Part shown: positions 4,949 through 45,505 of the stretch, piece after piece
Numbering within the stretch: position 1 is the stretch's first letter
Layout of the letters: each line of letters starts with the position of its first letter
Assembly (NCBI GenBank): GCA_902492015.1
Contig: CABUJR010000009.1
Location: forward strand, 32,344-96,343
Direction: 5' to 3'
Source: an uncultured Eubacteriales bacterium
Lineage (GTDB): Bacteria; Bacillota; Clostridia; TANB77; CAG-508
DNA length: 64,000 nucleotides
Notes under the pieces: model-generated
Database searches by the model: none
The model's input: the letters and a program-made list of their open reading frames with translations, nothing else
Told to the model about the DNA's origin: nothing
Made by a program: the position numbers and the translations under genes

Positions 4949-5172
4949 AACAAACCACTTATTATATAAAAATATTTTCTCCTTATTTATATTTAGGTTT
5001 TTTAAGTTTACCTATAAACCAAAATTATACTAAAACAATATATAATATAGCATTAAAATAATATTATCTATAATAAAATTTTATTTTAAAAATACTATTT
5101 AAAATACTATATTTAATATTATATTTATTACAATTTTACTAGATTATTTTATAATAAAAAATATATATTGTC

Positions 5173-5205
5173 AAAAAAAAATTGTACTAGAATTAGTACA
5201 ATTTT
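5173..5205 (-). terminator. Rho-independent terminator after rpmF
   Basis: On the minus strand, a 10-bp stem AAUUGUACUA/UAGUACAAUU is followed by a U run. Confidence 0.8.
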
Positions 5206-5215
5206 TCTTTATTCT

Positions 5216-5404
5216 TTATTTATTATCAGCTTTTTTTGCAATTACTTCTTTACCATCATAGTAACCACAGTTAGAACATACAGTATGTGGTCTAACTGGT
5301 TGATGACAATGTGAGCAAGTTGATAAATTTTCTTCTTCTAATTTCCAAGTTGATCTTTTTGATCCTGTTCTAGCTTTTGACCATCTTCTTTTTGGTTGTG
5401 CCAT
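5216..5404 (-). CDS. rpmF: 50S ribosomal protein L32
   Basis: MAQPKRRWSKARTGSKRSTWKL N-terminus and a CxxC...CxxC zinc ribbon (CSHC...CSNC). Confidence 0.95.
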   Translation of the reverse strand: MAQPKRRWSKARTGSKRSTWKLEEENLSTCSHCHQPVRPHTVCSNCGYYDGKEVIAKKADNK

Positions 5405-5486: not shown

Positions 5487-6170
5487 TTATACATTTGTCA
5501 AGCTTTTTTTACTATTTTTAACATTGTTTGGAATTATAAAATGATTATTAGAAAAGGTCTCAAATTGGCTTTTTCCTCTTTCTAATACAATCTGGTTTTC
5601 TAGCTTTTTATTTTCTATTTTTAAAAATTGTATTTGTATTTTTATATCTCCAAATATACCTCTATTTTTTTCTTGATGTATTACTGGTAGATAACTTTGA
5701 CCTTTTGTTATTTTATTACATGCCATTATATAAATTTCTTCATCTGAAATATCTTCATTATTTTCTTTAAAATAATCTAATTTTATTTCTTTATATAAAT
5801 TTTGCATTTCATCTGTAAAATTTCCCGCAAGTTCTAAAATTGCACAGGAATATAAATCTGAAAGCATATCTTTAAATTCTGAATGTTCTTTATAACTAAT
5901 TTTTTCTGCTTCTAATAATTCCATTTTTAATTTTATATTTTTCATTCTTTCTATTTGAAGATTATTTTTTCCTGTTATACCACCCAAAAAAGACATTCCT
6001 TCTGATGAAATTACTGCTCTTTCATCCACATATTTTTTAACTTTTGCGTTTTTTATAACTTTTTGAACCTTCCAAAATAATCTTCTTCTATCATCATTTT
6101 CTAAGGTTTCTTTTTTACTCTCACATATTAAATTATCATTAATTTTAATATTTTCATCTATTGTGTTCAT
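5487..6170 (-). CDS. Hypothetical protein (charged, probably coiled-coil)
   Basis: 227-aa ORF with its own promoter-like element and RBS AGAAAGAGG. I recognise no family motif. It occupies the position where DUF177/YceD usually precedes rpmF but does not resemble it. Confidence 0.6.
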   Translation of the reverse strand: MNTIDENIKINDNLICESKKETLENDDRRRLFWKVQKVIKNAKVKKYVDERAVISSEGMSFLGGITGKNNLQIERMKNIKLKMELLEAEKISYKEHSEFKDMLSDLYSCAILELAGNFTDEMQNLYKEIKLDYFKENNEDISDEEIYIMACNKITKGQSYLPVIHQEKNRGIFGDIKIQIQFLKIENKKLENQIVLERGKSQFETFSNNHFIIPNNVKNSKKSLTNV

Positions 6171-6192
6171 TTTTAATACCTCTTTCTAAAAT

Positions 6193-6221
6193 ATTTTATC
6201 AATAGATTACTTATATTTCAA
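6193..6221 (-). promoter_or_regulatory. Sigma-A-type promoter for the 5487-6170 gene
   Basis: Minus strand reads TTGAAA-17 nt-TAAAAT, about 25 nt upstream of the RBS and ATG. Confidence 0.45.
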
Positions 6222-6367
6222 GATTTTTTTATAAAAAGAATATTTGATTTTTCGACTAAAAAAACTAGCATCTAACTTTATATTAATATTAAGCAAAACT
6301 TTATATAATATATTACATATTATATAAAATCTAAAATAAGAAACTAAAAAAGAGTTTTTCTACTATA

Positions 6368-6434
6368 GAACAAAAGTGGACATTATGATAATTGCAAAAG
6401 ACTAAATTTTATGCAAATGTCCACGTCTTTGTTC
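6368..6434. repeat. Dyad element copy A (GAACAAAAGTGGACAT ... ATGTCCACGTCTTTGTTC)
   Basis: Long imperfect inverted repeat around a core containing TAATTGCAAAA and TATGCAAAT. The same blocks occur at 45441-45505. A 5' partial copy is at 23942-23962. Confidence 0.7.
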
Positions 6435-6520
6435 GCCGCGCCAAGTTTTTTTAAAACTTGCGTGCAATATTGGGCGTAAGCCTTTATATAATAGGAAGTC
6501 TGGAGGACTTTCCTATTATG
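6435..6520. other. G+C-rich hairpin-dense intergenic segment (possible small structured RNA, strand unresolved)
   Basis: GCCGCGCCAAGTTTTTTTAAAACTTGCGTGC (CAAGTT/AACTTG stem), GGGCGTAAGCC, and hairpin ATAGGAAGTC-TGGAG-GACTTTCCTAT (6491-6517). By eye it is the most G+C-rich non-coding stretch in the window. Confidence 0.35.
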
Positions 6521-6585
6521 TAAAAAAGTGATTAATCTAAGTAAAATTTAATTTTTACCATAAATTAACCACTTTTATATTTTTC
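6520..6585. terminator. Bidirectional hairpin terminator just downstream of the deaminase-fold gene
   Basis: 13-position stem AAAAGTGATTAAT / ATTAACCACTTTT with one mismatch and a large loop. T/A runs on both sides. It starts 15 nt after the stop at 6600. Confidence 0.55.
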
Positions 6586-6599
6586 TAATAATTTAACAT

Positions 6600-9122
6600 T
6601 TATATTTTATTTTTATCTACAGCTATTTCTGGATGATCTTTTAATATTTCTTGTGCTAAATTATCTTTTATTTTAAAACTTTTTACATATCCATCTAAAG
6701 AGTCTGCTTTATCTTTTAAAGCTTCTACTTCAGAATTTACATATATTTTAGCTTTTCCTTTTCCGTTTTTTGCTTCTTGAACTAAATTTGAAACTGGTGA
6801 ATTTCCATCAAAAGCTAATACAATAGAGTTTCTTCTTTCAAAGATTTCATAATTAAAACTTTTATAAATTCCCATTTCTTCACTTTCAGTTGAAATTCTA
6901 ATACCATTTACATCTTCTTTTAATAAATTATCGACTTCTTCTGCTGAAACTTCTTTTGGTATTATTGCATCAATTTCAAATTTTTTATTCATTTCATTTG
7001 ATGCATCTACTATTGCTTTTTCATAGCCACTTAATTTATGTCCTACTACGAAATAGACTTTTTCATTATTTAAATTCTTTACTAAATCTCTTATGACATT
7101 TTTACCATTTTCATCTAATTCAGTTTTTCTATTTTTAGCATTGAAACTTCCTCCAGCAACTATAATAGGAATTTTGTCTTCTGGTAATTTTTTAATTTTT
7201 CCTTTTAATTTTGATTCAGAATCAATTTTAGAGTTTATTCTCATTTCTATTACATTATTTTTGCTATTTTCTATATTTTTATTTTCTTCTTCTATTACAG
7301 CCTCTTTTATTGTTCTTCCTGCCAAAAATTTATTAAATTTTTCTTTCTTTTCTTCAAAATATTTTTTACTATGTTCTATTATTTCATCTTCTACTTTTCT
7401 CATGCTTTCAAAATCTTTTTCATTTAATCCTAAGATATTTGTAAGTGCTAATTGTTCATCTATTGTGTCTGTTCCATACATTCCACAACCATCTGTTCCT
7501 TGAACACATTTAATATTATTTTCTAAATATTGTTTTAATGGATGTTTTTCAAGTGCAGTTAAATTATTTAACCTTACATTAGAAGTTAATTGAAATTCAA
7601 GTACAGCACCTGTTTCTTGCATTTCTTTTATTAATTCTTTTCCTTCTTTAGAATTCAAATCTGCTGTATATAATCCATGTCCTAATCTAAATCTTGGCAT
7701 TTTTTGACCTGGTTTTAAAGAATCTTTTATACATTGAATCGATTTTCTTACATTATCTCTTAAACAATCATTTTCACCAGCATGTATTCTTATTGTAAAT
7801 CCTGGATCTTCTTCAACTGCATATTGAACTAATTCATTAATTACTGGTTTTAAATCTGTTATATCATTAATCTCTTCACCTATAAAGTCACTTCCAACAA
7901 CATAAGGGCTTTTAGCAACAGCTTTTAAAACATCTAGATTTTCTCTTAGATAATTACTACTTGTTTTTTGATCTTTTATTATTGTAAGTGGAATTCTTCT
8001 TATTCCTAATAAAAATCTTATTGCAACACCTGTTTCTTTTTCTATTTGAGGCATTATATCATGTAGTTCTTGTAATAACTTCACAGCAGGTTCTCCCACT
8101 TTTGCCAAATCTGTATCTGTTATTTCAACATAAGAAACATGTTGTTTCTGATATTCTCTTGCTATCCACAAAAATTTATCTTGTCTTAAAGTATTATTTT
8201 TATATGGACTATTTTCTTTTTTATCTTCTATTATCTTTTTTAAATAATTTACTATATCTTTTTCTGGAATATTTTCTATATTTTTAGAATTTATTTTTAT
8301 TTTTTTATCTGAAAATTTTGCCTTACAAAAAACATATCTATAAATGTAAACTTTTTCTAAGTTAGTAAATACTGCCTGACCGTCTTTAAGTAATCCCAAA
8401 CTGTTTCTTATTTTAGATATGTTGTATTCTGAGTTTTCCAAATTATTTAAAATTAAATCTGCAAAATTGATAAAAGTATTATCATCTATTTTTCTTGTTA
8501 AATACTTACCAGTTAATTCACTATTTTCAAATTGTTTTTCAATCTCTTTTCTATCTTTTAAAATTGCTTTTTCTTGTTTTTCAGTAATTTTTAAATCTAA
8601 TTTTTTTATGTAGTATAATGGATATTTAATTTGATGATATATTCCTAAAGCAATTAAAACATCTGGTGTTAAATTTGCATTCATGTGAGTATGTAAATCT
8701 GTTTTAAACTTAGATTTTTTAAATATATAAGATTTAACTATTGATTTTTTTATATCGAATTTATAGTCTTTTGTTTGTGACATTAAAGTCTTAGTAATAG
8801 CAGGTATTTTAGCTTTTACTTCTATTACATCTTCATAAATATTTGCTATTTTCATACCTGCTAATCTGAATATATAAACATCTTCATTATCACCATTTAT
8901 TGAAGCTGGTATTGTATCTGTGATTATCTTTAAACCATTTTCATCTCTTGAAGTTTCTAAGTTACATAATTTTGCTAAATTTGTTATTAAATTGCCACTT
9001 TTTTGATTAGGAGTTCTTATAATATATGTAAGTTCATCTTCTACATTTGTTTTATATAATTCAACCACAATGTCTTTTTCTTTATCAATATAGAATTTAT
9101 TAAAATATTTTAAATTTTCCAT
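6600..9122 (-). CDS. Multidomain protein: unknown N-terminal domain, adenosine/AMP-deaminase-fold metallohydrolase with a long insertion, and a C-terminal LOG/SLOG-like Rossmann domain
   Basis: Deaminase-type motifs appear in canonical order: DLHTHMN (HxH), SDFIGEE, IRIHAGEND (HAGE), RLGHGLY, QGTDGCG. The C-terminus (IPIIVAGGSF...VYFVVGHKLSGYEKAIVDA...IVLAFDGNSPVSNLVQEA) resembles LOG/SLOG Rossmann domains. It has its own promoter and terminator. Confidence 0.7.
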   Translation of the reverse strand: MENLKYFNKFYIDKEKDIVVELYKTNVEDELTYIIRTPNQKSGNLITNLAKLCNLETSRDENGLKIITDTIPASINGDNEDVYIFRLAGMKIANIYEDVIEVKAKIPAITKTLMSQTKDYKFDIKKSIVKSYIFKKSKFKTDLHTHMNANLTPDVLIALGIYHQIKYPLYYIKKLDLKITEKQEKAILKDRKEIEKQFENSELTGKYLTRKIDDNTFINFADLILNNLENSEYNISKIRNSLGLLKDGQAVFTNLEKVYIYRYVFCKAKFSDKKIKINSKNIENIPEKDIVNYLKKIIEDKKENSPYKNNTLRQDKFLWIAREYQKQHVSYVEITDTDLAKVGEPAVKLLQELHDIMPQIEKETGVAIRFLLGIRRIPLTIIKDQKTSSNYLRENLDVLKAVAKSPYVVGSDFIGEEINDITDLKPVINELVQYAVEEDPGFTIRIHAGENDCLRDNVRKSIQCIKDSLKPGQKMPRFRLGHGLYTADLNSKEGKELIKEMQETGAVLEFQLTSNVRLNNLTALEKHPLKQYLENNIKCVQGTDGCGMYGTDTIDEQLALTNILGLNEKDFESMRKVEDEIIEHSKKYFEEKKEKFNKFLAGRTIKEAVIEEENKNIENSKNNVIEMRINSKIDSESKLKGKIKKLPEDKIPIIVAGGSFNAKNRKTELDENGKNVIRDLVKNLNNEKVYFVVGHKLSGYEKAIVDASNEMNKKFEIDAIIPKEVSAEEVDNLLKEDVNGIRISTESEEMGIYKSFNYEIFERRNSIVLAFDGNSPVSNLVQEAKNGKGKAKIYVNSEVEALKDKADSLDGYVKSFKIKDNLAQEILKDHPEIAVDKNKI

Positions 9123-9173: not shown

Positions 9174-9202
9174 ATTATAGCAGAATTTTAAGCACTTTGC
9201 AA
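9174..9202 (-). promoter_or_regulatory. Sigma-A promoter of the deaminase-fold gene
   Basis: Minus strand reads TTGCAA-17 nt (agtgcttaaaattctgc)-TATAAT, followed by RBS AAGGAAGGA and the ATG at 9122. Confidence 0.65.
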
Positions 9203-9259
9203 GCATTTTACACAATTTTCACAAAACATGAGTTTTATAATAATAAACTTACCCTATTA

Positions 9260-9294
9260 CAAAAAATAAGAAAATAGAATATTTCTATTTTCTT
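9260..9294 (-). terminator. Rho-independent terminator after the HD gene
   Basis: Perfect 12-bp stem AAGAAAATAGAA/TTCTATTTTCTT with a 3-nt loop and a U run on the minus strand. Confidence 0.8.
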
Positions 9295-9441
9295 ATTTCA
9301 TTTTTATATATTATTTTATATTTATATGTCTTATAACTTATATCTTCTTATATTTCATTTTCTAAAACTTTCATTTTATATTCTAAATATCTTCAAAATT
9401 TTATATTTTTAAATTTTCACTTTTATATACTTATTTTAAAA

Positions 9442-10236
9442 TTAAATAATATTATTTGTTCTTTCTACTAAATATTCATTTGCTACTCTTCTCATGTTAC
9501 AAATTCTTTCAATTGTTTCAGGATTTTTGTATTTTATTTTATCAAACATTTTATTTACCAAATCATTTTCCTTTAAATACATAAGTCCTTCTGCAAAATT
9601 ATAATCAAATATAAAGGAAATATATGAAACCCAACTATCTAAATATGTTTCTCTATCATCTATTTTCAGTTGTTTTTTATTCATAAAATCTTCATATATT
9701 TTATCTGAAATAGTATCTGCATAAATTTTTTCCATATCTTCTGTTCCTAAAATAACACTTAGTTTTTCAGTTAGTTTAACTCTAAAGTTATCTGTTTTAT
9801 CATTATCTCTAATAAGTTTTGCATGTAATAATTCTTTTTCATTTAAATTATCTTCTATTTTATATTTATTATGATTTAAAATTGCTTTATATATTATATT
9901 ATCATACGCAGAATCTGCTATAAATTTTCTTATTAAATTATCTTCAAATAAAATTTTAACTCCAAATTTTGCATGATCAAAATATTTAGTATCAGCTTTA
10001 TCGAAAACATTTTCTATTACTTTAGATTGTTCAAATCTACCTATATCATGTAATAAAGCTATTAATTCAGACAATCTTGTATCTTCTTCATTTAAGTTTA
10101 ATTTATCTGCTAAATTTTTGCTAGCTTCTACTACACCATATGTATGTGTTACTTTTAATTTTACTCTTTCATCCTCTAAATTATAATCTTTTAAATATTC
10201 CTTAAATTCTTTTTGAGCTTTTAGTAAATCTATCAT
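9442..10236 (-). CDS. HD-domain metal-dependent phosphohydrolase
   Basis: H...LHDIGRFEQ HD motif plus downstream FDHAKFG and NHNK helices. 264 aa. RBS AGGAGAG lies 23 nt after the upstream gene's stop. Confidence 0.75.
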   Translation of the reverse strand: MIDLLKAQKEFKEYLKDYNLEDERVKLKVTHTYGVVEASKNLADKLNLNEEDTRLSELIALLHDIGRFEQSKVIENVFDKADTKYFDHAKFGVKILFEDNLIRKFIADSAYDNIIYKAILNHNKYKIEDNLNEKELLHAKLIRDNDKTDNFRVKLTEKLSVILGTEDMEKIYADTISDKIYEDFMNKKQLKIDDRETYLDSWVSYISFIFDYNFAEGLMYLKENDLVNKMFDKIKYKNPETIERICNMRRVANEYLVERTNNII

Positions 10237-10259: not shown

Positions 10260-11003
10260 TTAAAGTTTAAAATTAAATTTTTTATTTTTAATATTACTAT
10301 CTTCTTGTGATGCTTCAATCATAATTTTTTGCTCTCTTTCCTTATCTAATCTATTTGATATCATAAGCATATTATCATCTATATTATTTATTACTCTTGC
10401 ATATTTAATAAGATTTTTAGATTCTGTTTTTCCTATATTTGGATTTTTATACTTTAATTTATGTTCTATACTTGCCCAAAAGTCCATTCCTAAAGTTCTT
10501 AGTTGTATTTCTACTTTTACAAACATTATACCTGAAGAAAAATTTACTGGTACTTCTGTAATTAAATGATAACTCATATATCCACTTTGTTTTGGCTTTT
10601 TCATAAAGTCTTTTCTATTTAAAATTCTTATGTCTTGGAAATCTTCTATTATTTCTACTAGCTTATATACATCTTTTTTAAAATTACAAACTATTCTAAT
10701 TCCTGCAATATCATTTATTTTTTCAAACATATTTTCATAAGTTAATTCACAATTTTTTCTTTTCAATTTTTCAATTATAGTTTCTGGTTTTTTTAATCTA
10801 GTTGTAACATATTCTATAGGTTCATAGTTTGAAAAAATTTTAAGCTCATCCTGAAGAATTTCCATTTTTGTTTTTATCTCTTTTAGAGCTGAACTATATA
10901 AGAACATTACCTTTTTAAAATTTTCATCATTTATATCTATTAATTCTTTATTAACAAGATTACCTTCGATATTTATCAAATATTCATTTTCATTTTCTGA
11001 CAT
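10260..11003 (-). CDS. Small alarmone synthetase (RelP/RelQ-type GTP pyrophosphokinase)
   Basis: DIAGIRIVCNF, SGYMSYHLI and VEIQLRTLGMDFWASIEHKLKYK are the RelA/SpoT synthetase-domain signatures. No hydrolase or regulatory domains. Confidence 0.85.
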   Translation of the reverse strand: MSENENEYLINIEGNLVNKELIDINDENFKKVMFLYSSALKEIKTKMEILQDELKIFSNYEPIEYVTTRLKKPETIIEKLKRKNCELTYENMFEKINDIAGIRIVCNFKKDVYKLVEIIEDFQDIRILNRKDFMKKPKQSGYMSYHLITEVPVNFSSGIMFVKVEIQLRTLGMDFWASIEHKLKYKNPNIGKTESKNLIKYARVINNIDDNMLMISNRLDKEREQKIMIEASQEDSNIKNKKFNFKL

Positions 11004-12573: not shown

Positions 12574-13176
12574 CTATATATTTTGAATTATAAAATCTAT
12601 AACATCGTCATCATTATTATCATCTTTATCCTTTTTTTCTCTCTCATCTAACTCAACTAAATACTTATTATATTTTGGCATAATAGTTATGGAATCTAAA
12701 GGATAACCTGGATTTCTTTTTTCACAAGGCTTATCTACAAAATAGAAATTGCCTTTGCTCCAAGAATATTCTTTCTTTTTAATACCATCATATATTACCA
12801 TACCATATACCCATTTTGCTGTTAATTTTTCACCATATTCTTTTACTAATCCAGTATAATATTCAATCATTTCATCATCTGTTAATCTTTTACCATTTAC
12901 TCTTCTTACATGTGTTCCTGGTTGTTTTTCTTTTGGAAGTTCTTCTATAAATAAATTATTATCCATTCCTATTGTTACTATATTTGTTGCATCAAAATAA
13001 CCTTTTGCTTTTATATATGCATTTTCTAAAGCATTTTTTCCATTTTCTTCTATATCAACATCTACATCAATATCTTTTAATGTTAATAAATCAATATTTT
13101 TCATTTTTAATCTGTCAGCATATTTTTTTACTTTTGCTGGATTTGATGTTGCAAATAGTACTGTTTTTCTTTCCAT
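12574..13176 (-). CDS. HAM1/ITPase-like non-canonical purine NTP pyrophosphatase paralogue
   Basis: The N-terminus VLFATSNPAKVKKY mirrors the ATxNxxKxxE start of RdgB/HAM1. 200 aa with an acidic tail. Confidence 0.55.
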   Translation of the reverse strand: MERKTVLFATSNPAKVKKYADRLKMKNIDLLTLKDIDVDVDIEENGKNALENAYIKAKGYFDATNIVTIGMDNNLFIEELPKEKQPGTHVRRVNGKRLTDDEMIEYYTGLVKEYGEKLTAKWVYGMVIYDGIKKKEYSWSKGNFYFVDKPCEKRNPGYPLDSITIMPKYNKYLVELDEREKKDKDDNNDDDVIDFIIQNI

Positions 13177-17713: not shown

Positions 17714-18364
17714 CTATAATTCTTTCTGCATAATCCATTTAATATCTTCTATAGATTTATCTATATTAAACCTACCATTTCCTATTGGATAAAATACAGA
17801 ATAAAATTTGTATTCTCTAGAATTAATTTTTCTTTTAAAAAGTTTTTTTCTACATGTAGATACAGAAATCTTTTCATTTAAAACTATCGAACTCACTTGA
17901 TTTCCAAACAAAATTACGACTTTAGGATTTACTAACTCTATTTCTCTTTCTAATAATTCTAAATATTCTTTATAAACGCTGTCTGGTAGTGGTCTTGCAT
18001 CCACTTGTGTACATTTTCCTAAATTAGTAATAAAATATTTGTTTTCTTCTACGTTTTTATAAACTTCATCTGCAAATTCTTCAGTCCATTCTATAGGTTT
18101 CATACTTTTAATTTTTTTATAAATATTTTCATCAACCAAATTTAAACTATAAAATAAGTCCCAGATATTTTTAGTTCCAATCCAAGGGGATTTTCTTCCT
18201 AACCAATTTTTATTAGAAGCTATATTTCTGCCAGTTGGATTCATAAAAACAAAACAAATATCTGGATTTGATGTGCAACCACCATTATATATTGAATCTA
18301 ATTCTTTTGCGCCATATTTTTCTTGAAGTTTATCATATTCTGTTTTTAAATCTTCTAATTTCAT
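17714..18364 (-). CDS. Uracil-DNA glycosylase superfamily protein (non-family-1)
   Basis: CFVFMNPTGRN lies at the motif-A position and FYPIGNGRF at motif-B. The size is typical of UDG-fold proteins. The subfamily is unclear. Confidence 0.5.
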   Translation of the reverse strand: MKLEDLKTEYDKLQEKYGAKELDSIYNGGCTSNPDICFVFMNPTGRNIASNKNWLGRKSPWIGTKNIWDLFYSLNLVDENIYKKIKSMKPIEWTEEFADEVYKNVEENKYFITNLGKCTQVDARPLPDSVYKEYLELLEREIELVNPKVVILFGNQVSSIVLNEKISVSTCRKKLFKRKINSREYKFYSVFYPIGNGRFNIDKSIEDIKWIMQKEL

Positions 18365-19532: not shown

Positions 19533-20111
19533 CTATATATCTTTTATTTTATTTTTTATCATCTCTAATGCTTTTCTTCTTGCACTTATTTCATTTTTTT
19601 CTTCACTAGTAATTTCGGCTAAAGTTTTGCCATTTTCTAATTCAAATATTTCATCAAATCCAAATCCATTATTTCCTCTTACACTTTCTGAAATATAACC
19701 ATTTATTGTAGCAACAGCTGAATAAACCTTATTACCGTCTGCAAAAGCTATTGCTGTTGTAAATTTAGCCTTTCTATTTTCTTTTTCTATACCATTTAAT
19801 TTTTTTATAATTTCAATATTTCTATCTCTATCTGTTCCACAATGCCATCTTTTAGTAAATACTCCAGGAAAACCATCTAAACATTCTATTTCTATACCAG
19901 AGTCATCTGAAAGACATGGTTTTCCTCCTAATTTTTTAGAAATCTCTACTGCTTTTTTTATAGCATTACCTTCAAAAGTTTCTTTATCTTCATCAACTTC
20001 GATATTTACTCCTATTTCTTTTATAGAAATTATTTTAAAATCATTTAATATGTTTTGTGCTTCCTCTATTTTTCCTTTATTTCCTGAAGCTATAATTATT
20101 TCATTCTCCAT
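19533..20111 (-). CDS. rdgB: dITP/XTP pyrophosphatase (RdgB/HAM1)
   Basis: IIASGNKGKIEE, DDSGIE, GFPGVFTKRW, GFGFDEIF and SARRKA are canonical HAM1 blocks. Confidence 0.9.
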   Translation of the reverse strand: MENEIIIASGNKGKIEEAQNILNDFKIISIKEIGVNIEVDEDKETFEGNAIKKAVEISKKLGGKPCLSDDSGIEIECLDGFPGVFTKRWHCGTDRDRNIEIIKKLNGIEKENRKAKFTTAIAFADGNKVYSAVATINGYISESVRGNNGFGFDEIFELENGKTLAEITSEEKNEISARRKALEMIKNKIKDI

Positions 20112-26386: not shown

Positions 26387-26863
26387 TTATTTTTCGTTCA
26401 ACTTTCCATATTCTATAAGATTATATTTAATAAGTGTATCTCCATCATATTCAAATTTTATAGTAAAAAAATTATCATCTTTTTGTAACTTTTCTACAAA
26501 AATTTTATCACCTTCCCATGTGTTTAATCTTAAAACTTCTTTTTTATCAATCCACTCTAAATCTCCTTCATCACATTCTATAATTTCACCATCGAAATCA
26601 TTTGATGTAAATAGAAACATGTATTCAGTTTCCCAAGTTTTTGATATATAACTTATAATACCTCTTAATTTATATGAATTCAATTTAAGCCCAGTTTCTT
26701 CTTTTACTTCTCTTATAATACATTCTTCAGGGCTTTCACCTTCTTCAAATTTTCCGCCAATTCCTAGCCATTTATTCTCATTTATATCATTTTTCTTTTT
26801 AGTTCTATGTAGCATTAAATATTTATTCTCTTTTTCTAGATAGCATAATGTGGATAATATCAT
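26387..26863 (-). CDS. NUDIX hydrolase (MutT-like)
   Basis: NUDIX box GGKFEEGESPEECIIREVKEETGL. Confidence 0.85.
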   Translation of the reverse strand: MILSTLCYLEKENKYLMLHRTKKKNDINENKWLGIGGKFEEGESPEECIIREVKEETGLKLNSYKLRGIISYISKTWETEYMFLFTSNDFDGEIIECDEGDLEWIDKKEVLRLNTWEGDKIFVEKLQKDDNFFTIKFEYDGDTLIKYNLIEYGKLNEK

Positions 26864-26925: not shown

Positions 26926-27441
26926 TTATTTTTCGTTGTTTATAAGCTTTTTTATATCATCTCTTACATATTCCCATCTATTTCTCATAAACATATCATT
27001 TTTATAAATATCTTCTATTTCATCAAAAGTTGCAAATTTTATTTCAGAAACCTCTTCTTTTCTTAGTTTTACTTTATTTGTGTCAACATCTTGTTTTACT
27101 AAATATACATCTAGCCATAAATTTGGTAACTTATAACGTTGAATTTTTGTAGCACTATCTAAGTTCAAATTTATGCCTAATTCTTCATTTGCTTCTCTAT
27201 TTAAAGCTTCTAAGATTTCTTCTCCTTTTATTACAGAACCACCAACTGTCATTGACCATACATTAGGCTCTCTCTTTTTTTGAGGTGAGCGTTTTTGAAT
27301 TAATATTTTATTTTCACTATTTATAATCCATGCATCAACTCCTTGATGATAATTACCTTCTTGCCATGTTCTTTTATCTTCTTTTTCTAAAACTAATCCT
27401 GTAAAATTTCCTTTTTCATCCAATATATCCCATAATTCCAT
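26926..27441 (-). CDS. NUDIX hydrolase
   Basis: NUDIX box GGSVIKGEEILEALNREANEELGI. Confidence 0.8.
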   Translation of the reverse strand: MELWDILDEKGNFTGLVLEKEDKRTWQEGNYHQGVDAWIINSENKILIQKRSPQKKREPNVWSMTVGGSVIKGEEILEALNREANEELGINLNLDSATKIQRYKLPNLWLDVYLVKQDVDTNKVKLRKEEVSEIKFATFDEIEDIYKNDMFMRNRWEYVRDDIKKLINNEK

Positions 27442-38838: not shown

Positions 38839-39415
38839 CTATTTTATTTGTTCATACCATTTTGCAAACTCTTGCATTGCTTGTACTGAACCATCAACTT
38901 TTCTTCTGTTTTCTCTTTCTTCTGAATCCATCTCAGCTAAAGTTTTTTCAAATCCTTTTGGCTTAAAAATATACCACAAATCGGACCATTTCTCTGGTCT
39001 ATCTAATCCTTGAATACTATTTGCTAAAATTCCGTGGATGCTTTCCATAAAAATAATGTATTTCTTTCCCATCATGGTATGCTAAACACTCATTAAATGC
39101 ACATGTTCTGTTTTGTTTATTTTCCATTAATTTTAAGATACCATTTATTCCTATTGTATCTAGTGAAAAATTTACAAACGCTCTCGGAAAACCATTTAAT
39201 TCATCAATTCTAAAATCTGTATCAAGAGCTATACAAGGTCTTTTTACTATTTCATAAGCTTGTTTAACTTTTGCTGTTGCTATTACTTTTATATCATCAC
39301 TTCTAGGTTCATCTAATTCATAATTAAAAGTTCTAAATTTTAAATTTTTAAAATACTTTTCTGCTGATTTTATTTTTCCGGTATTGTGAGTTACAAAAAC
39401 TATTTCATTATCCAT
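38839..39415 (-). pseudogene. HAM1/ITPase-like gene interrupted by a frameshift (or a sequencing error)
   Basis: ORF 39017-39415 (IVFVTHNTGKIKSAE...DELNGFPRAF) carries the N-terminal HAM1 blocks. ORF 38839-39075 in another frame carries the C-terminal part (WYIFKPKGFEKTLAEMDSEERE). The frames overlap at 39017-39075 around GGAAAG. Confidence 0.6.
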
Positions 39416-45405: not shown

Positions 45406-45440
45406 TTCCTCATCATAATCCTTTTATAATTTATTAAAAA

Positions 45441-45505
45441 GAACAAAACTACACATTATATAATTGCAAAAAATAACTTCCTATGCAAATATTAAAGTTT
45501 TGTTC
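45441..45505. repeat. Dyad element copy B in the secG-rnr spacer
   Basis: GAACAAAACT...ACATTAT.TAATTGCAAAA...TATGCAAAT...AGTTTTGTTC. On the minus strand the hairpin is followed by UUUUU, 35 nt before the rnr ATG. Confidence 0.7.

Follow-up and report, generated by a model that had tools for sequence, protein, structure and literature searches.

An 840-residue adenosine-deaminase-like protein with a predicted SLOG-like C-terminal domain in uncultured gut Clostridia

Ordinary adenosine deaminases (Add/ADA, PF00962; for example 6n9m from Salmonella, 6n91 from Vibrio and 2pgf from Plasmodium) are TIM-barrel proteins of ca 340 residues. In Cad1 of type III CRISPR systems (9c6c, 9ebt, 8z3k), an N-terminal CARF domain is joined to the deaminase in one polypeptide, RdrB of RADAR is a large protein of adenosine-deaminase fold, and the eukaryote-type AMP deaminases and ADGF (9nte, 3lgd) are large, regulated members of the superfamily with extra domains. 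In the Kongming system, an ADA, a HAM1 and a SIR2 protein (KomA, KomB and KomC) are encoded in a three-gene operon in which the HAM1 protein is catalytically dead, and KomA acts on adenine nucleotides and carries its catalytic histidines at residues 15 and 17, as does an ADA of ordinary size (bioRxiv 10.1101/2024.12.20.629578). Here, we analyse a further member of this superfamily, encoded in a 64,000-nucleotide stretch of DNA, called the window below, from an uncultured Eubacteriales bacterium (contig CABUJR010000009.1, positions 32,344 to 96,343). The gene lies on the minus strand at 6600..9122 of the window and encodes an adenosine-deaminase-like protein with a C-terminal SLOG-like domain; it will be called the deaminase-SLOG gene. 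A preliminary description of the stretch had reported a complete 840-residue open reading frame (ORF) at this place, and a single, complete ORF with an ATG start is indeed found there.

Judged from sequence comparisons and a predicted structure, the protein would be a Zn-dependent aminohydrolase that acts on the adenine ring, a catalytically competent member of the adenosine/AMP-deaminase superfamily. It is probably a regulated enzyme of the adenosine-deaminase family, with a domain architecture not characterised before. The reading that we favour, with confidence evenly divided between it and all others, is that the gene is passed on vertically and encodes an active deaminase of adenine nucleosides or adenine nucleotides, whose accessory domains would tune its activity and which would serve purine interconversion in small-genome, low-GC gut Clostridia. 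A regulated purine enzyme is more likely than a mobile anti-phage weapon, and the gene may have arisen by domestication of an accessory module. The substrate of the TIM-barrel core would be an adenine nucleotide substituted at the 5' position (AMP, dAMP or ATP type) or, with less likelihood, an adenine nucleoside, which would be converted to the inosine form, and the C-terminal LSDAT/SLOG-like domain would set this activity allosterically or via oligomerisation, together with the N-terminal domain and an enlarged helical lid. The protein could in this way be a bacterial functional analogue of a regulated AMP deaminase, acting in the balance of adenylate to inosinate or in purine salvage. The preliminary description had seen the same parts, namely a deaminase fold, an insert, an unrecognised N-terminus and a SLOG-like C-terminus, and these were retained; its suggestion of an immune effector rather than a metabolic enzyme is held to be unlikely for this clade.

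Deaminase core and substrate

The deaminase domain, an amidohydrolase TIM barrel, covers residues 136-600 (7323..8717, minus strand), with H144/H146/H447/E450/H482/D544. A match to Pfam A_deaminase (PF00962), proposed earlier as a check, was obtained with E=1e-17 and 64.7 bits, well above the gathering cut-off of 27, and all 45 of 45 family members match this model. The full set of adenosine/AMP-deaminase motifs occurs in the order originally given, with DLHTH at residues 142-146, SDFIGEE at 411-417, RIHAGE at 445-450, LGHG at 480-483 and TDG at 543-545. In family alignments of 45 and 81 sequences, H144, H146, D412, E417, H447, E450, H482 and D544 are invariant, and the metal and catalytic residues align with those of the Plasmodium, Vibrio, Salmonella and murine enzymes. 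With Add/ADA the protein shares the TIM barrel, HxH, HAGE, the GHG histidine, the metal aspartate and the first helix after HxH, while it differs in its length of 840 residues and in its additional N-terminal domain, lid insert of ~105 residues and C-terminal SLOG-like domain.

Two further positions set the protein apart from ADA. The aspartate after the HxH motif (D19, in the HxHLDG of ADA), which contacts the ribose 5'-OH, is Asn148 here and Asn, Ala, Ser or Thr across the family. The second aspartate of the DD motif (D296), which is the N7 contact in ADA, is Gly545 here and Gly throughout the family. Since the ribose-5'-OH-binding aspartate, whose role is taken from the ADA literature, is replaced, a 5'-substituted substrate, for example a 5'-phosphorylated one, would fit. 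The near-tie of ADAL and AMP deaminase structures in the structural comparison described below would also fit a 5'-phosphorylated substrate.

By sequence profile, the deaminase is nearer to ordinary ADA than to Cad1. Namely, with the family profile searched against the PDB sequences, ordinary bacterial and Plasmodium ADA were the best hits (~1e-19 to 1e-20), the N6-methyl-AMP deaminase of Arabidopsis was found at ~2e-11 and Cad1 at ~3e-5, and RdrB was not recovered. The protein scores far below threshold with the adenosine-deaminase equivalog models of NCBIfam (best 48 bits vs a cut-off of 216.55), and Pfam AMP_deaminase does not match it. The only PADLOC hit for the protein is the CARF_ADA model (1.3e-8), which spans residues 319-563, that is, the deaminase part only; the RdrB model of PADLOC gave no match to it at E<=1.

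The structure was predicted with AlphaFold2 from the 81-sequence family alignment, since the single-sequence model had a predicted local distance difference test score (pLDDT) of 37. The resulting model has a mean pLDDT of 91.9 and a predicted template-modelling score of 0.92, and it comprises a beta-rich N-terminal domain, the TIM-barrel deaminase, two long linker helices and a C-terminal beta-alpha domain. The first ca 150 residues had been called unrecognisable. This agrees with the lack of any Pfam or NCBIfam match for the first ~135 residues, but the model confidently predicts a beta-rich domain there (residues 1-135, 8718..9122, minus strand), for which no known family gave a match and which shows 78% conservation in the clade. 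Within the clade the domains are equally conserved (74-78%), and the least conserved segment (58%) is the linker with its long helices (residues 601-648, 7179..7322, minus strand).

The helical insert in the deaminase domain (residues 172-320, 8163..8609, minus strand) is ~105 residues longer than its ADA equivalent. Conservation with ADA extends through the first helix after HxH to about residue 171, and the Pfam match picks up again at residue 321, corresponding to profile position 78. The region after this helix thus spans 149 residues here vs ~44 in ADA, a net insert of ~105 residues, and the ca 200 residues given in the preliminary description were an overestimate.

With the whole 840-residue model as the Foldseek query against the PDB, all of the top 50 hits, which are the ones listed, are deaminases. 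Human ADAL (8qch) is first at 5.6e-11, ADA and the AMP deaminases and ADGF follow down to ~1e-8, and Cad1 is lower in the list at ~3e-8. A structural comparison to RdrB and Cad1 had been suggested earlier; it recovers Cad1, but RdrB is not among the top 50. The longest alignments are those with the AMP deaminases and ADGF (~510-520 columns, TMq 0.33-0.35), which resemble the protein in being large superfamily members with extra domains; unlike them, it has no Pfam AMP_deaminase match, and the accessory domains differ.

These comparisons also bear on the option that the protein is a pool-sanitising deaminase of the ADAL/MAPDA type, converting modified or damaged adenine nucleotides such as N6-methyl-AMP to IMP, with the extra domains selecting the substrate. 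It would agree with ADAL being the best structural match, with the profile hit to the Arabidopsis enzyme and with the family not having Asp at the position of ADA D19, which ADAL is not known to have either, and the window is rich in genes of pool sanitation (three Ham1-like, two NUDIX and one uracil-DNA glycosylase (UDG) gene). However, the ADAL and ADA hits in Foldseek are nearly tied, ADAL enzymes have ~350 residues and no extra domains, the family is without the second Asp of the DD motif, and the Ham1 and NUDIX genes are unlinked to the deaminase-SLOG gene across genomes. We consider this option improbable, though not to the degree of the bifunctional enzyme discussed in the next section.

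The C-terminal domain

The C-terminal part of the protein (residues 649-830, 6633..7178, minus strand) is a Rossmann-like, LSDAT/SLOG-like domain, in which the model has seven alternating beta-alpha units at residues 651-829 with a pLDDT of ~90. The last ca 190 residues had been read as a Rossmann domain with a LOG/SLOG layout. The fold is predicted confidently, but no SLOG or LOG family matches the window protein itself, and its glycine loops are degenerate. Namely, the SLOG/LOG models of Pfam gave no match to it at E<=1, and LOG (PF03641) matched neither the window protein nor the homologous C-terminal segments at any threshold.

The assignment to SLOG, of LSDAT type, would come solely from distant homologues, at scores under the Pfam cut-offs. 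LSDAT_prok matches 17 of 27 excised homologous C-terminal segments, with a best E of 6.4e-6 and all of them under the gathering cut-off of 25.4 bits. The same 27 segments gave five matches to LSDAT_euk, two to LDcluster4 and two to YAcAr, which like LSDAT_prok are SLOG families, all below the curated cut-offs; one family member is matched by Nuc_deoxyri_tr2 as well. The profile of the C-terminal alignment searched against the PDB has a TRPM2-like channel (6co7) as its top hit, with the motif TGGTNTGV and an E of 0.13, which is not significant, and no significant SLOG structure was obtained from PDB profile searches with either the full or the C-terminal alignment. Foldseek against BFVD gave a weak match to the phage protein DprA, a SLOG member, with E=0.04.

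The motifs of the distant homologues in this domain are KxPIlItGAS, YFVTGGTNxGVEK, IAIGGGxVVxDxIQ and GASTDKA, and TGGTNxGVEK is common to distant family members and to the N-terminal LSDAT domain of TRPM2-like 6co7. At these loops, the window clade has VGHKLSGYEK, DGNSPVSNLVQ and ALKDKA, which means that the glycine loops after strands 2 and 4 are degenerate. In this the protein is unlike LSDAT and the SLOG domain of ThsA, and it is also without a TIR or signal-synthase partner. Queries of a large protein database with the C-terminal domain, both as a single sequence and in profile form, recovered nothing beyond fragments of the ADA-fusion family, and no other architecture. We conclude that the domain probably belongs by sequence to the SLOG superfamily, being an apparently LSDAT-like, divergent subtype found fused to ADA only.

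Because the domain is about as conserved in the clade as the catalytic core (74% vs 78%) and contains the invariant clade motif GIYKSFNYEIFER at residues 751-763, it can be taken to have a function, although the ancestral ligand may no longer be bound by it.

Another option considered was a bifunctional enzyme, in which a C-terminal LOG-like N-glycosidase or ADP-ribose-processing domain and the deaminase carry out successive reactions, with AMP/IMP or derivatives of NAD/ADP-ribose as conceivable substrates. Distant homologues carry an acidic residue in GGGxVVxDxIQ which we take, from a hand alignment of motifs, to fall at the catalytic Glu of LOG, and the pairing of LSDAT-like and NUDIX domains seen with distant homologues recalls TRPM2, in which LSDAT and NUDIX occur together in ADP-ribose modules. 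SLOG domains of the LOG clade cleave the N-glycosidic bonds of AMP derivatives (PMC9503650). On the other hand, the window clade has an invariant Asn (N779) at the position of the acidic residue and DGN in place of GGG, and LOG is the family that was matched at no threshold. This makes a bifunctional enzyme the least probable of the options considered, and a very unlikely one.

Distribution in gut Clostridia and distant relatives

Over 5600 homologues received a score; the 120 best are all ~840 residues long, with 70-96% identity. In a species-level scan with one genome per species, at least 595 matching stretches were found; the best 80, with 62-86% identity, are all full-length copies from uncultured gut Clostridia. 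The carriers include Ca. Scatovivens, Clostridium sp. CAG:575, 28_12 and 26_21. A metagenome scan was made with a 10-sequence alignment.

Among the closest loci, with identities of at least 75%, the gene is followed by a 227-residue protein without family match, rpmF, a dCMP-deaminase-like gene, a PTPS-related membrane protein, Der and PlsY, and ~17-19 of the fetched loci keep this order, counting some repeat assemblies of one genome. In the group with 62-71% identity, genes for an HtrA-like protein (18 loci), an M23 protein (14) and a TadA/GuaD-like CDA deaminase (13) stand directly upstream, with ylxM-ffh-rimM-trmD-rplS downstream in 6-7 loci and PheT upstream in 6. The pairwise identity of the deaminase-SLOG protein tracks that of its neighbours (Spearman r=0.61 for Der and 0.68 for the dCMP deaminase). 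The gene appears to be a fixed, vertically inherited chromosomal gene in this lineage of gut Clostridia. The preliminary description had asked for a patchy, island-like distribution and had named a conserved syntenic position as the finding that would speak against a stand-alone immune effector; in the closest clade the gene occupies conserved housekeeping positions in many species, its divergence following that of Der and the dCMP deaminase, and the effector is held to be unlikely for this clade.

A separate observation concerns one orthologue, P0112, whose 3' flank takes three forms depending on the sample (L004, L005 and L006, downstream of 10550). The flank consists of DUF2207 genes, of a RepA_N/relaxase element, or of an integrase and a prophage, so that the site beside the gene is an integration hotspot.

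The more distant full-length homologues have ~22-32% identity and 750-1070 residues, and the group at ~30% identity is patchy, occurring in Ignavibacteriales, Christensenellaceae and assorted metagenomes. NUDIX is found with two of them, once as a Nudt16-like gene directly downstream (locus L087, 11213-11737) and once fused after the SLOG-like domain in a homologue near a CHAT protease (P0358, L090 7001-9601). One homologue lies near an ICEA/Dam restriction-modification pair and KilA-N, one near an integrase-like gene among hypotheticals, and serine recombinases are present in four loci. Housekeeping neighbours are also found beside some distant homologues. The ancestry of the ADA-SLOG family appears from this suggestive of an accessory, possibly conflict-related, origin.

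In five of the distant loci (L087, L094, L100, L101 and L112), a protein with a PGDYG domain (PF14083) is encoded immediately upstream, and a related 233-residue protein is found in three others (L095, L096 and L113); it is a candidate partner protein of the ancestral system. A conserved protein of ~150 residues without known identity is encoded by a gene that overlaps the stop codon of the homologue in an operonic-looking manner in four loci (L100 5795-6268, L101 3314-3760, L102 3104-3562 and L109 9486-9944), with extra paralogues nearby. The N-terminal domain of the window protein and the 227-residue downstream protein show no similarity to either of these neighbours. PADLOC also gave mad2 and mad3 hits near distant homologues, which were discounted, the same models also matching ordinary genes of the window.

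This brings in the single-polypeptide immune sensor-effector, in which the deaminase would be turned on when the SLOG-like domain detects a nucleotide signal or a nucleotide of phage origin, a proposal that we regard as unlikely for this protein. Its output, which we hold to be equally doubtful here, would be the conversion of ATP/dATP (or dAMP) to inosine nucleotides, leading to growth arrest or poisoned phage replication, as with Cad1, RdrB and KomA. The domain logic parallels that of Cad1, with a Rossmann-like, sensor-type domain and an ADA in one polypeptide, the ADA domains are superposable (E~3e-8 in Foldseek), and the sole PADLOC hit is CARF_ADA. A SLOG domain is the sensor in ThsA of Thoeris (PMC11204291, PMC7272460). 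The company kept by the distant homologues (the restriction-modification pair with KilA-N, serine recombinases, CHAT, the integrase-like gene and, in two cases, NUDIX) and the mobile-element hotspot at the 3' flank in one species also fit.

Against this stand several observations. The PADLOC hit is limited to the deaminase part, the profile similarity to Cad1 is weak (3e-5) with the deaminase nearer to ordinary ADA, RdrB is not detected, and in this clade the glycine loops of the SLOG-like domain are degenerate. Unlike in Cad1, the sensor-like domain is C-terminal and SLOG/LSDAT-like rather than an N-terminal CARF, there is no type III CRISPR context in the window, and the gene sits at a conserved housekeeping position, its divergence correlating with that of the neighbours there. 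Unlike in RADAR, there is no RdrA partner, the neighbours being an HD-domain gene, a small alarmone synthetase (SAS) gene and that of the 227-residue protein. More generally, no defence or signal partner (TIR, cyclase, Cas10, Cas, RdrA or SIR2) was found in the neighbourhood or the window, PADLOC on window ORFs of at least 100 residues gave generic hits only, with no Cas, TIR, SIR2 or RdrA, and no TIR domain occurs near the gene in the window or in the 80 related loci grouped by neighbour. Finally, the search of BFVD with the model gave nothing significant and no viral homologue.

For the distant relatives at ~30% identity, the idea of a conflict system may hold. In its widest form, the whole family of ADA with an LSDAT-type SLOG domain, and sometimes NUDIX, would form a class, not described before, of conflict-system effectors in which one protein both senses nucleotides and deaminates. 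The Clostridia would then carry either an innate immune or stress effector that has become fixed in the chromosome, or a domesticated derivative that steers the adenine-nucleotide pool by an intracellular nucleotide signal, for which an alarmone from the upstream SAS is a candidate. We consider this wide form, too, to be unlikely.

The Kongming system was excluded because a SIR2 gene was not detected in the scans of the window, including Pfam searches of the ORFs at 533-30072. An ADA-family protein and HAM1-family genes do occur in the same genome region, as in Kongming, but the Ham1-like genes lie 3.5-30 kb away and are not co-conserved with the deaminase-SLOG gene.

It is important to note that a number of points weigh against the favoured reading of a vertically inherited purine enzyme. 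The Gly at the D296 equivalent in the whole family suggests that the substrate may be unusual, and the C-terminal domain of the window clade may have lost nucleotide binding altogether. An architecture of a sensor-like Rossmann domain with an ADA resembles an immune effector, Cad1, and the distant relatives are patchy, some of them beside recombinases, restriction-modification genes, CHAT or NUDIX. The status as a core gene rests on synteny and breadth, and Rfam gave no purine riboswitch or other purine-regulatory RNA 5' of the gene.

In full-text searches of the literature on SLOG or LSDAT together with deaminases, a scope that excludes the founding SLOG/LSDAT paper, no account of a fusion of ADA to SLOG or LSDAT came up. 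If regulation of the SLOG type is true, the protein would be the first bacterial adenosine-deaminase-family enzyme under that sensor class, and a counterpart of the CARF-controlled Cad1, but within core metabolism. Human and animal gut metagenomes contain it in abundance, with thousands of homologues, in a lineage without cultured representatives, and its product (IMP, ITP or dITP) and activating switch bear on the purine economy of these gut Clostridia. The case also bears on how immune-type modules turn into housekeeping genes. The current annotation as 'adenosine deaminase' probably overstates the knowledge of this protein.

Expression signals and other genes of the window

The window is very AT-rich (21-28% GC), composition and strand bias are uniform around the locus, and the GC content of the deaminase-SLOG gene is that of its surroundings. 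A near-consensus promoter had been reported for the gene. The site exists, in the form TTGCAA-17-(TG)TATAAT with an extended -10 TG (9174..9202, minus strand, ~50 nt 5' of the ATG), but it is a consensus match only, and such matches are no commoner than expected by chance in this AT-rich DNA (49 observed vs 50.8 expected). The reported terminator was recovered as well. Directly 3' of the stop codon there are two stable hairpins (6483..6575, minus strand; z=-5.6), the first with a U-run, and an AT-rich perfect hairpin with a U-run at 9257..9299 (minus strand) terminates the upstream HD gene and sets it apart from the deaminase-SLOG gene. Because a hairpin with a U-run follows the stop codon and a terminator-like hairpin ends the upstream gene, it is plausible that the gene is transcribed alone. 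The monocistronic expression claimed earlier is in this sense kept, on the hairpins of both sides but not on the promoter.

The spacer downstream of the gene (6171-6599) is unusually long, with 429 nt compared to ~90 nt for its counterpart in locus L001. It contains a stretch that is relatively rich in GC as well as two strong hairpins, and its similarity to 45440-45505 of the window is only short. No Rfam family, purine riboswitches included, matched the window or this spacer.

Immediately downstream on the same strand is the gene of the 227-residue protein (5487-6170, minus strand), which is present in 18 of the 18 closest loci and absent from more distant genera. It is followed by rpmF (ribosomal protein L32; ~5150-5340, minus strand), which falls under the ORF length filter and lies between it and the dCMP-deaminase-like gene. 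Directly upstream of the deaminase-SLOG gene, an HDIG-domain phosphohydrolase is encoded at 9442-10236 (minus strand), and beyond it a YjbM/RelQ-like SAS at 10260-11003 (minus strand). The SAS gene adjoins the deaminase-SLOG gene in nine of the closest loci and lies a short way upstream of it in roughly half of the closest genomes. The HDIG gene adjoins the deaminase-SLOG gene in 5-7 loci, two of which (L043 and L084) belong to more distant genera. A link between the protein and alarmones is possible.

The preliminary description had also listed three HAM1/ITPase-like genes and a UDG-fold gene in the window, and these were found. A bona fide RdgB is encoded at 19533-20111 (minus strand), and two further Ham1/RdgB-like copies, at 12574-13176 and 39017-39415 (both minus strand), are divergent or truncated, one of them being a truncated protein of 132 residues. 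The idea that Ham1 and UDG act as detoxifiers of the deaminase product receives no support from linkage, as these ORFs lie 3.5-30 kb from the deaminase-SLOG gene and are neither operonic with it nor co-conserved across genomes. The Ham1 genes of the window look monocistronic. Together with two NUDIX genes (26387-26863 and 26926-27441) and the family-4-like UDG gene (17714-18364), the three Ham1-like genes make up an unusual density of nucleotide-pool sanitising genes within 64 kb.

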